NCBI GenBank assembly: GCA_000004985.1
Contig: GG739508.1
Source of the DNA: Naegleria gruberi
Taxonomy: Eukaryota
Length of the DNA stretch: 1,196 nucleotides
Direction: 5' to 3' (one strand)
Part shown: in pieces, positions 1-682 of the stretch
Numbering within the stretch: the first letter of the stretch is position 1
Layout: every line of letters starts with the position of its first letter
The notes under the pieces: model-generated
The model's database searches: none
The model's input: only the letters and a program-made list of their open reading frames with translations
Told to the model about the DNA's origin: nothing
Position numbers and translations under genes: made by a program

Positions 1-27
1 ATCAGGTTTACTACTACTATGCTTAAT

Positions 28-100
28 AATCTCGGTACCTTACCCATTAGTATAATTACTTGTTCTCAATCTTGTTTTTATTAATTTGCAATGTAACATG
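28..100. repeat. Direct repeat copy A: 13-bp flank aatctcggTacct (28-40) abutting a 60-bp core (41-100) that is identical to 572-631
   Basis: Seen in sequence. The 60-mer tacccattagtataattacttgttctcaatcttgtttttattaatttgcaatgtaacatg occurs twice with 0 mismatches. The upstream 13-mer matches 481-493 with 1 mismatch (t36 vs g489). Similarity stops abruptly at 101 (tctaattctg vs atatttgaa). Confidence 0.9.
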
Positions 101-153
101 TCTAATTCTGAGCGAAGTGAAGAATGGACTTGTTTTCATTGTAAACTTAATAA

Positions 154-161
154 AATATAAG
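154..161 (+). promoter_or_regulatory. TATA-like motif aaTATAAGt
   Basis: Seen in sequence at 154-161, 15 bp upstream of ATG 176 and 35 bp upstream of ATG 196. It follows a 7-codon uATG ORF (124-144), which argues that any TSS lies downstream of 144. The background is very AT-rich, so the TATA match carries little weight by itself. Confidence 0.15.
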
Positions 162-175
162 TTGAGTATTTTTCC

Positions 176-328
176 ATGCTCAAAAAATTATCACAATGGC
201 CCCAACACCAACTACACCAAAGAACAACAAGAAAACGAAAGACCTTAGCTCACCTTCTGCAGGTAGCTCCCACCCAATTAGTCCCACCCTTATTCAACCT
301 TTTTTACGCTCTCAATGATTCTTGGTAA
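176..328 (+). CDS. Alternative overlapping 50-codon ORF in a different frame: MLKKLSQWPQHQLHQRTTRKRKTLAHLLQVAPTQLVPPLFNLFYALNDSW*
   Basis: Seen in sequence: ATG at 176-178, stop TAA at 326-328. This frame stays open up to the GTAAGT donor at 325. Inference: splicing 324 to 390 would continue it to a stop at 496-498, adding about 36 mostly hydrophobic residues. The ATG context (ccATGc) is weaker than that of the 196 ATG. Speculative. Confidence 0.1.
   Translation: MLKKLSQWPQHQLHQRTTRKRKTLAHLLQVAPTQLVPPLFNLFYALNDSW
196..318 (+). CDS. Candidate small ORF or first coding exon of 40 codons: MAPTPTTPKNNKKTKDLSSPSAGSSHPISPTLIQPFLRSQ*
   Basis: Seen in sequence: ATG at 196-198 in the context tcACAATGGCc, with stop TGA at 316-318. 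Established knowledge: this context matches the plant translation-initiation consensus (A at -3, G at +4, GC at +4/+5). The N-terminus is basic and Pro/Thr/Ser-rich. Inference: it sits in a C/A-rich, G-poor island about 36-40 bp downstream of a TATA-like motif. It is only 40 aa and has no detectable homology by eye. It could equally be a uORF, exon 1 or chance. It was not in the supplied ORF track, presumably because of a length cutoff. Confidence 0.2.
   Translation: MAPTPTTPKNNKKTKDLSSPSAGSSHPISPTLIQPFLRSQ
268..289 (+). repeat. Tandemly spaced duplicate motif tcccaccc (268-275 and 282-289) separated by aattag
   Basis: Seen in sequence. A CACCC-type C-rich 8-mer occurs twice at a 14-bp offset within the G-poor island 199-300. 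Function unknown. Confidence 0.4.
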
Positions 329-389
329 GTGTTCATTGAAGTGAGGTTTCAGATATCATCGAATGATATCTTTTTTATTTTAATTTCAG
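325..389 (+). other. Candidate 65-bp spliceosomal intron: donor TTG|GTAAGT (325-330), T-rich body, acceptor TTTTAATTTCAG| ending at 389
   Basis: Seen in sequence. Established knowledge: GTAAGT is a consensus 5' splice site, and a U-rich tract followed by TTTCAG is a typical plant/nematode 3' splice site. The length is near the lower bound for plant introns. Without transcript evidence or coding continuity this is tentative. Confidence 0.2.
352..370. repeat. 19-bp palindrome gatatcat-cga-atgatatc (8-bp perfect arms, 3-nt spacer) containing two GATATC (EcoRV) sites
   Basis: Seen in sequence. It lies inside the candidate intron 325-389. Confidence 0.85.
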
Positions 390-483
390 TTTAGTTATGC
401 CATCCTATTCGCACCTCCTAATTTTTTTCTTATCTTTACTAATACTATTGATAAGTTTTTTTATAAGAGCCATATTTATTAAT

Positions 484-533
484 CTCGGGACCTGCTAATA
501 AAGATTTATATCCATTAAAGCAGGTCTCAAGGC
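484..533. repeat. Imperfect inverted repeat (hairpin) spanning the flank/insert boundary: ctcgggacctgct (484-496) pairs with agcaggtctcaag (521-533) over a 24-nt loop
   Basis: Seen in sequence. 11 of 13 positions are Watson-Crick complementary; one of the two mismatches would be a G-U wobble in RNA (g488:t529). The core 8-mer gacctgct/agcaggtc is perfect. Confidence 0.7.
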
Positions 534-537
534 TGAA

Positions 538-552
538 TCACCTTAAAGGTGA
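538..552. repeat. Perfect 15-bp palindrome TCACCTTaAAGGTGA (7-bp arms, single central base) inside the copy-B-specific segment
   Basis: Seen in sequence. The reverse complement of tcacctt (538-544) equals aaggtga (546-552). This is the arrangement expected for a dimeric DNA-binding site, but no specific factor is assigned. Confidence 0.85.
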
Positions 553-638
553 AACAGTCCCTGAGCTTTAATACCCATTAGTATAATTACTTGTTCTCAA
601 TCTTGTTTTTATTAATTTGCAATGTAACATGATATTTG

Positions 639-640
<2 letters not shown>

Positions 641-682
<42 letters not shown>
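641..682. repeat. (AT)21 dinucleotide microsatellite
   Basis: Seen in sequence. 42 bp of uninterrupted alternating AT, beginning 9 bp after the end of repeat copy B. Confidence 0.97.

Follow-up and report, generated by a model that had tools for sequence, protein, structure and literature searches.

Same-strand copies about 0.5 kb apart, a collinear homology interrupted by insertions and deletions (indels), and a perfect block bounded by heterology and by the end of the homology are the features which the locus analyzed here shares with short local duplications homogenized by gene conversion. The locus lies in a stretch of 1,196 nt from Naegleria gruberi (contig GG739508.1; the whole stretch is called the window below) and contains a 60-nt sequence twice, as copy A and copy B. 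It differs from such homogenized duplications in that the block is only 60 nt long, that the unevenness of the divergence is marginal, and that a third, inverted copy of the sequence is present.

A second type of system to which the locus can be compared is the remnant of a foldback element or of a miniature inverted-repeat transposable element (MITE). The likeness is an imperfect 156-bp palindrome, AT-rich and non-coding, whose long arms leave hardly any loop, together with a partial extra copy nearby. In contrast to such remnants no target-site duplication is found here, the homology between copies A and B exceeds the palindrome, and the collections searched gave no match.

For plant microRNA (MIRNA) genes an origin by inverted duplication has been described (PMC3237417). 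With young plant-type MIRNA loci (PMC3237417) the locus has in common a long near-perfect foldback (<300 nt), one arm of which has a direct copy nearby, and a + strand RNA which is favored through G:U pairs. The differences are that no known family is recognized here and that the putative progenitor or target is non-coding and part of the same locus.

Finally, the inserts templated by polymerase theta are mostly shorter than 25 bp, about 85% of them have their priming site no farther than 10 bp from the break, and their synthesis is error-prone (PMC5068794). Copy B resembles such filler DNA, and that of synthesis-dependent microhomology-mediated end joining (SD-MMEJ; PMC5068794, PMC5728401), in being a patchwork of 13-, 18- and 60-nt patches from a nearby template, with the substitutions in the short patches, which alternate with hairpin-forming filler holding inverted copies of GGGACCTGCT. 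It differs in that the 60-nt patch is clean and comes from ~530 bp away, and in that there is no microhomology at the junctions.

The direct repeat and its flanks

The cores of copies A and B, 41-100 and 572-631, are identical at 60/60 positions on the same strand and lie 531 nt apart, just as a preliminary description of this DNA had stated. This identity far exceeds chance. When the window, with its AT tracts removed, was shuffled 300 times with preservation of the dinucleotides, the longest exact direct repeat was on average 11 nt and never longer than 16 nt. The features of the locus are collected in Table 1.

Table 1. Coordinates of the repeat copies and associated features in the window
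Feature	Position	Strand	Remark
Distal collinear block of copy A	7-19	+	12/13 with 435-447
Left flank block of copy A	23-40	+	contiguous with the core; 16/18 with 476-493
Copy A, exact 60-mer	41-100	+	60/60 with 572-631; 44-100 is most of the left arm of the palindrome
Inner near-perfect hairpin	65-166	+	43 pairs, apical loop 114-116
Inverted diverged third copy (right arm of the palindrome)	117-199	-	includes the ATG at 196
Distal collinear block of copy B	435-447	+	28 nt follow (448-475), compared to 3 nt in copy A
Left flank block of copy B	476-493	+	78 nt away from its core
Insertion specific to copy B	494-571	+	exactly 78 nt between flank and core, edges not shiftable
Copy B, exact 60-mer	572-631	+	solo copy without a partner arm
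(AT)21 tract	641-682		starts 9 nt past the right end of copy B

The preliminary description also reported a 13-nt flank, 12/13 identical, on the left side of both cores. The identity is real, but in copy B the matching sequence is found at 481-493, upstream of the insertion, and does not adjoin the core; the 13 nt which do adjoin copy B (559-571) agree with 28-40 at 2/13 positions only. Taken as an 18-mer the flank matches at 16/18 positions, which was reached in 0/5000 shuffles of the 150 nt upstream of copy B. The 12/13 match of the distal block was reached in 1/5000 shuffles; its motif has a weaker third match at 811-823 and is thus of somewhat low complexity. Copy B carries the same blocks in the same order as copy A, with two additions of its own of 25 nt (net) and 78 nt. 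It follows from the flank and distal matches that the duplicated unit is no smaller than 7-100 (copy A) and 435-631 (copy B), with a length of at least 94 nt, and its true left edge may lie outside the start of the window. With at most 1/5000 shuffles reaching either of them, the two matches (16/18 and 12/13) show that the paralogy is longer and older and contains indels.

The sequences beyond the boundaries had been described as unrelated, which is correct for the right side and, because of the collinear distal block, not for the left. To the right of the cores no homology was found between 101-215 and 683-790, nor between 101-215 and the sequence downstream of copy B. This rules out a tandem duplication of a unit of ~531 bp as well as a remnant of a 3' arm of copy B beyond the (AT)21 tract. 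A tandem repeat or satellite is ruled out because there are no head-to-tail copies, and because Tandem Repeats Finder (TRF) detects the AT/TA tracts and one weak array of 7-9 nt, nothing else. Downstream of copy B there are no hairpins except that of the (AT)21 tract, which lies where the preliminary description had placed it. The tract is a possible fragile site at which the homology ends, and it may have played a role in the event. The 60-mer on its own is unstructured (z of the RNA fold +0.7 to +0.8).

Each copy contains a TATA-like hexamer, TATAAT, at 52-57 and 583-588, respectively. ATG codons at 176 and 196 lie 76 and 96 nt past the end of copy A, in good agreement with the distances of about 75-95 bp given earlier. 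The 60-mer could accordingly be seen as a cis-regulatory module under constraint, such as a TATAAT core promoter which was duplicated to drive two transcription units, and the perfect identity of the cores although the flank blocks differ, the position of copy A and the hexamers would all go with this. However, the open reading frames (ORFs) past copy A encode 40-50 aa without a homologue and are absent from the protein collection, copy B precedes no gene but only the (AT)21 tract and ORF-free AT-rich DNA, and the ATG at 196 is merely the complement of CCAT at 44-47 within the palindrome. We consider such a module highly improbable.

The same low probability is given to an artefact of assembly or cloning, in which a mis-join or a path through a shared exact 60-mer (k-1 for k = 61), beside an (AT)n which is hard to assemble, would have brought two copies into one contig. 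The repeat is exactly 60 nt with sharp edges, copy B abuts the (AT)21 tract, a classic trouble spot for assemblers, and both copies and the window itself end in CATG. Against this stands that the diverged flank blocks (16/18 and 12/13) and the 78-nt insertion make the copies two distinct paralogous sequences, and that even a mis-join would require a genuine genomic repeat.

Divergence between the copies and the favored origin

Measured against copy A, the identity amounts to 87% in the inverted copy, to 28/31 positions (90%) in the left blocks of copy B, and to 60/60 in the core of copy B. All three substitutions are found within the 31 flank positions and none in the 60 core positions (p = 0.037). 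The probability of finding 0 differences in 60 positions is 0.002 at the rate of the flank, and 0.13 at the pooled rate of 3/91. On the left the perfect block is bounded by the 78-nt insertion, on the right by the point near the (AT)21 tract where the homology stops.

The preliminary description took the perfect identity as highly telling and offered very recent duplication, ongoing gene conversion, strong constraint or an assembly artefact as its cause. The premise is weaker than this, as a clean run of 60 positions is expected with P ~0.13 at 3/91 and the contrast between flank and core reaches only p = 0.037; a moderately recent duplication with ~3% divergence could give a clean 60-nt run by chance. 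Among the causes offered, duplication and gene conversion are favored by the difference between flank (~90%) and core (100%) and by the coincidence of the block with the uninterrupted homology. If the heterogeneity is real, a short tract of conversion or repair synthesis would be the neatest explanation, because the perfect block spans exactly the uninterrupted homology.

We favor the reading that the 60-mer is no discrete functional element but the longest stretch left intact in a small, local family of repeats at the DNA level, and give this reading about an even chance of being correct. The family itself is most likely an ordinary and neutral one which lies in unstable DNA rich in AT and perhaps underwent a short conversion recently; the chances of this are likewise about even. 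The inverted and the direct duplications would have been roughly contemporaneous products of break repair or template switching in a palindrome-rich, AT-rich setting, and the insertions and substitutions would have come after them. The 60-nt block would then have become identical by chance or, more likely, by one recent short-tract transfer between the copies, in which intrachromosomal gene conversion or synthesis-dependent repair carried the sequence of one copy into the other. Such a tract could have spread only as far as the homology is unbroken, with the 78-nt insertion as its limit on one side and the stop of the homology by the (AT)21 tract as its limit on the other. This reading is supported by the lack of structure in the lone 60-mer, the lack of matches to Rfam families and tRNAs, of ORFs longer than 62 aa and of Pfam matches, and by the richness of the window in palindromes.

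Several points weigh on the other side. A length of 60 nt is short for efficient gene conversion. The heterogeneity test is marginal, and with P = 0.13 at the pooled rate conversion is perhaps not needed. No microhomology was found at either edge of the 60-mer. Three copies of the unit in 600 bp, one pair of which forms a hairpin, also resemble transposon-derived DNA, and the 4 G:U pairs in that hairpin, which has no A.C mismatch, hint weakly at selection at the RNA level.

The palindrome of copy A

The window is not, as first described, otherwise non-repetitive, as it contains an inverted and diverged third copy at 117-199 and many palindromes. Copy A, which takes in at least 7-113, is directly followed by this inverted copy, and the two form the left and right arms of an imperfect palindrome of 156 bp (44-199) centered near 115; the statement that terminal inverted repeats (TIRs) are absent is thus incorrect for copy A, which forms one arm of a hairpin of 102-156 nt. 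The arms 44-113 and 117-199 are identical at 55/63 aligned positions (87%), with 7 gaps including one of 12 nt, and a local alignment of 1-114 with the reverse complement of 117-260 scored 51, compared to 27 +/- 4.6 (maximum 43) in 300 shuffles. One unit of ~60-70 nt is accordingly present three times in 600 bp, as copy A (+), the inverted copy and copy B (+). The outer edge of the palindrome at 44 and the start of the 60-mer at 41 are only 3 nt apart.

The inner hairpin 65-166 has 39 Watson-Crick and 4 G:U pairs, three single-nucleotide bulges and a tiny apical loop. In it 65-100 pairs with 129-166, and farther out 44-62 pairs with 181-199 across the 12-nt extra piece of the right arm. The minimum free energy (MFE) of the + strand RNA (55-175) is -35.4 kcal/mol with z -6.8, and 0/200 shuffles fold equally well; the minus-strand RNA of the hairpin reaches only -20.9 kcal/mol. 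The hairpin persists in the fold of 1-640, the mean probability of its pairs is 0.87, and its minimum free energy index (MFEI) is 1.24. As DNA, both strands of the palindrome fold about equally well. In folds with the outer helix 44-58/186-199, the 12-nt extra piece is part of a small side hairpin, UUGAGUAU...AUGCUCAA, within 162-185.

The long-armed palindrome and the unit boundary at 41-44 make transposon-derived DNA the strongest rival of the neutral repeat family. In this case 44-199 would be a foldback or MITE-like element consisting nearly entirely of long TIRs, and copy B a partial second copy (a solo arm with adjacent element sequence) which carries a 78-nt insertion. The arms of ~70-83 nt would be TIRs with 87% identity and almost no internal sequence between them; the edge of the palindrome at 44 nearly coincides with the edge of the 60-mer at 41, which is the insertion point in copy B, and this suggests a discrete unit boundary. 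The equal folding of both DNA strands and the AT-rich non-coding setting with microsatellites also agree with such an element. However, no target-site duplication was found at the palindrome. The flanks read ...TACCTTAC/C on the left and G/CCCCAACAC on the right, without a common duplication of 2-9 nt, and 35-43 (TACCTTACC) and 200-208 (CCCCAACAC) are unlike and offer no TA or TAA pair. The homology between copies A and B reaches left beyond the palindrome (23-40 and 7-19), and the duplicated unit is therefore not the palindrome. Furthermore, copy B stops within the arm, at position 100 of the arm 44-113, and Pfam gave no remnant of a transposase or reverse transcriptase in the stop-free segments. 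We consider an origin from a transposon possible but unlikely.

A retroelement with long terminal repeats (LTRs), or a terminal-repeat retrotransposon in miniature (TRIM), had been dismissed from the beginning, and rightly so. The block starts with TA and ends with TG, without TG..CA termini, and the CA at 97-98 is 2 nt inside the end. A search for a primer binding site (PBS) complementary to tRNA-iMet, the only tRNA searched, with up to 3 mismatches gave 459-470 (+) and 565-576 (-) only and nothing at 99-115, i.e. no such site by either copy. There is no polypurine tract upstream of copy B, as the sequences upstream of 435 and 476 are pyrimidine-rich on the + strand.

Another rival takes the hairpin for a recently arisen hairpin-RNA gene transcribed from the + strand, which would be MIRNA-like or a source of endogenous siRNA (small interfering RNA). 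Copy B would then stay identical to the 5' arm as its progenitor, or as a cis target or decoy of small RNAs from the 3' arm. Foldbacks of plant-type MIRNA genes are shorter than 300 nt and contain a 21-nt duplex with few mismatches and small bulges. The hairpin agrees with this, as in the 21-nt windows which start at 65-78 no more than one position is unpaired (20-21 of 21 paired, 1-2 of them as G:U), and the opposite arm has only 2-3 extra (bulged) nt. Its 43 pairs with z -6.8 and MFEI 1.24, the much better folding of the + strand RNA, the 4 G:U pairs without an A.C mismatch, and a + strand rich in T and C throughout, as sense strands often are, point in the same direction, and the arrangement fits the inverted-duplication model of MIRNA origin (PMC3237417). 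On the other hand, no miRNA family in Rfam fits 65-166 even at E up to 10, the G:U asymmetry of 4 to 0 has a p of only ~0.06, the duplication stops at 100 within the stem regardless of the limits of the hairpin, and 14-mers of the hairpin were found in no paper by full-text search. In AT-rich eukaryotic DNA near-perfect AT-rich hairpins of this kind are common and mostly non-functional. A hairpin-RNA gene is thus rather doubtful. Its most specific form, in which 44-199 would be a newborn MIRNA-like gene beside its source or target, with small RNAs from the 3' arm pairing with the 60-mer 531 nt downstream and either this pairing or an accompanying conversion keeping the copies identical, must be considered very unlikely.

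The insertion in copy B and the remaining sequence

With 7 nt of the flank included, the 78-nt insertion folds into two adjacent hairpins, 487-528 and 531-559. The stem of hairpin 1 is GGGACCTGCT/AGCAGGTCTC, and hairpin 2 holds a perfect 15-nt palindrome, TCACCTTAAAGGTGA, at 538-552. The folds of the insertion have z -3.0 to -3.3 for the + strand RNA, z -4.9 to -5.0 for the - strand RNA, and z -5.1 and -5.7 as DNA. One of the two flank substitutions, T36 in copy A and G489 in copy B, makes the pair G489-C526 of hairpin 1. Two inverted near-copies of the flank motif GGGACCTGCT are found inside the insertion, at 519-528 and 554-563, and are what fold-back synthesis would leave. The core fits less well with a templated insertion of the polymerase-theta type: the inserts are mostly <25 bp with a template within ~10 bp, and here the patch is 60 nt with its template at 531 nt.

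The insertion is not an intron, as neither strand offers a GT..AG and its edges allow no shift, and not a transposon, as there are neither terminal inverted repeats nor a target-site duplication. That copy A arose by a slippage deletion of the insertion is ruled out because both ACC triplets are kept in copy A. No Rfam family matched the insertion. The 8-mer CTGTTTCA, the core of the motif found upstream of 21U-RNAs in C. elegans, was also rejected: it occurs exactly once in the window (557-550, minus strand) and is at chance level with one mismatch (mean 1.06 per shuffle).

The whole window has 26% G+C and is rich in T and C, with 497 T, 387 A, 191 C and 121 G on the + strand. This asymmetry extends over the entire window, and the cumulative GC skew drops all along it, which would be in keeping with a transcribed, intron-like region whose sense strand is the + strand. 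The longest ORF is at most 62 aa, and by its look the window is non-coding eukaryotic DNA. None of 9 ORFs was present in the protein collection upon exact look-up, and Pfam gave no match for ten stop-free segments. A C-rich island at 196-318 with 44-47% G+C carries an ORF of 40 aa (MAPTPTTPKNNKKTKDLSSPSAG...), for which a homology search gave no homologue, and is followed by a donor-like GTAAGT at 325. The first 14 nt of this ORF match, by chance, primers for the M2 gene of murine gammaherpesvirus; apart from this the full-text search of papers with 14-16-mers found nothing relevant.

No tRNA or tmRNA was detected by a scan of the window. Rfam at E up to 10 gave only sub-threshold matches, the best with 15.8-19.6 bits compared to thresholds of 47-90 and with E of at least 1, and the snR66 "hit" merely mirrors the terminal stem of the hairpin. 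When the full window was compared with phages and plasmids by BLASTN, no match appeared, and 22-23-mers taken from the core, the hairpin, the insertion and the GC-richer island had 0 exact matches in viral, metagenome and prokaryote genome contigs. A scan for sigma-70 promoters and intrinsic terminators gave no more than expected from shuffles, and this approach is not applicable to such DNA.

The window contains four short perfect hairpins (stem at least 8, loop at most 20), compared to 0.96 +/- 1.0 in shuffles. One of them is a perfect 9-bp inverted repeat with a 3-nt loop at 351-371 (AGATATCAT CGA ATGATATCT); the remaining three are near 896-923, 1019-1038 and 1027-1058. There is a second AT tract, (TA)12, at 1165-1188. 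The sequences CATGATATTTGAAAT(AT)n at 628-662 and (TA)nAAATGCATG at 1162-1196 are 80% mutually complementary, so that the segment 628-1196 is bracketed by inverted AT tracts ending in CATG, as do both copies of the 60-mer. This bracket is probably a coincidence of microsatellites.

Nothing found here shows a function of the repeat or makes it a new kind of element. As a neutral local repeat family it would be of little importance, being one more local inverted and direct duplication, with a possible short-tract conversion, in non-coding DNA rich in AT and in palindromes; its main use would be as a warning that function does not follow from 60 nt of perfect identity alone. Should the unit be a high-copy transposon, it would matter for annotation, and should the hairpin make small RNAs, the locus would be of more weight, since an inverted duplication, a hairpin and a retained direct copy would be found side by side at one locus.

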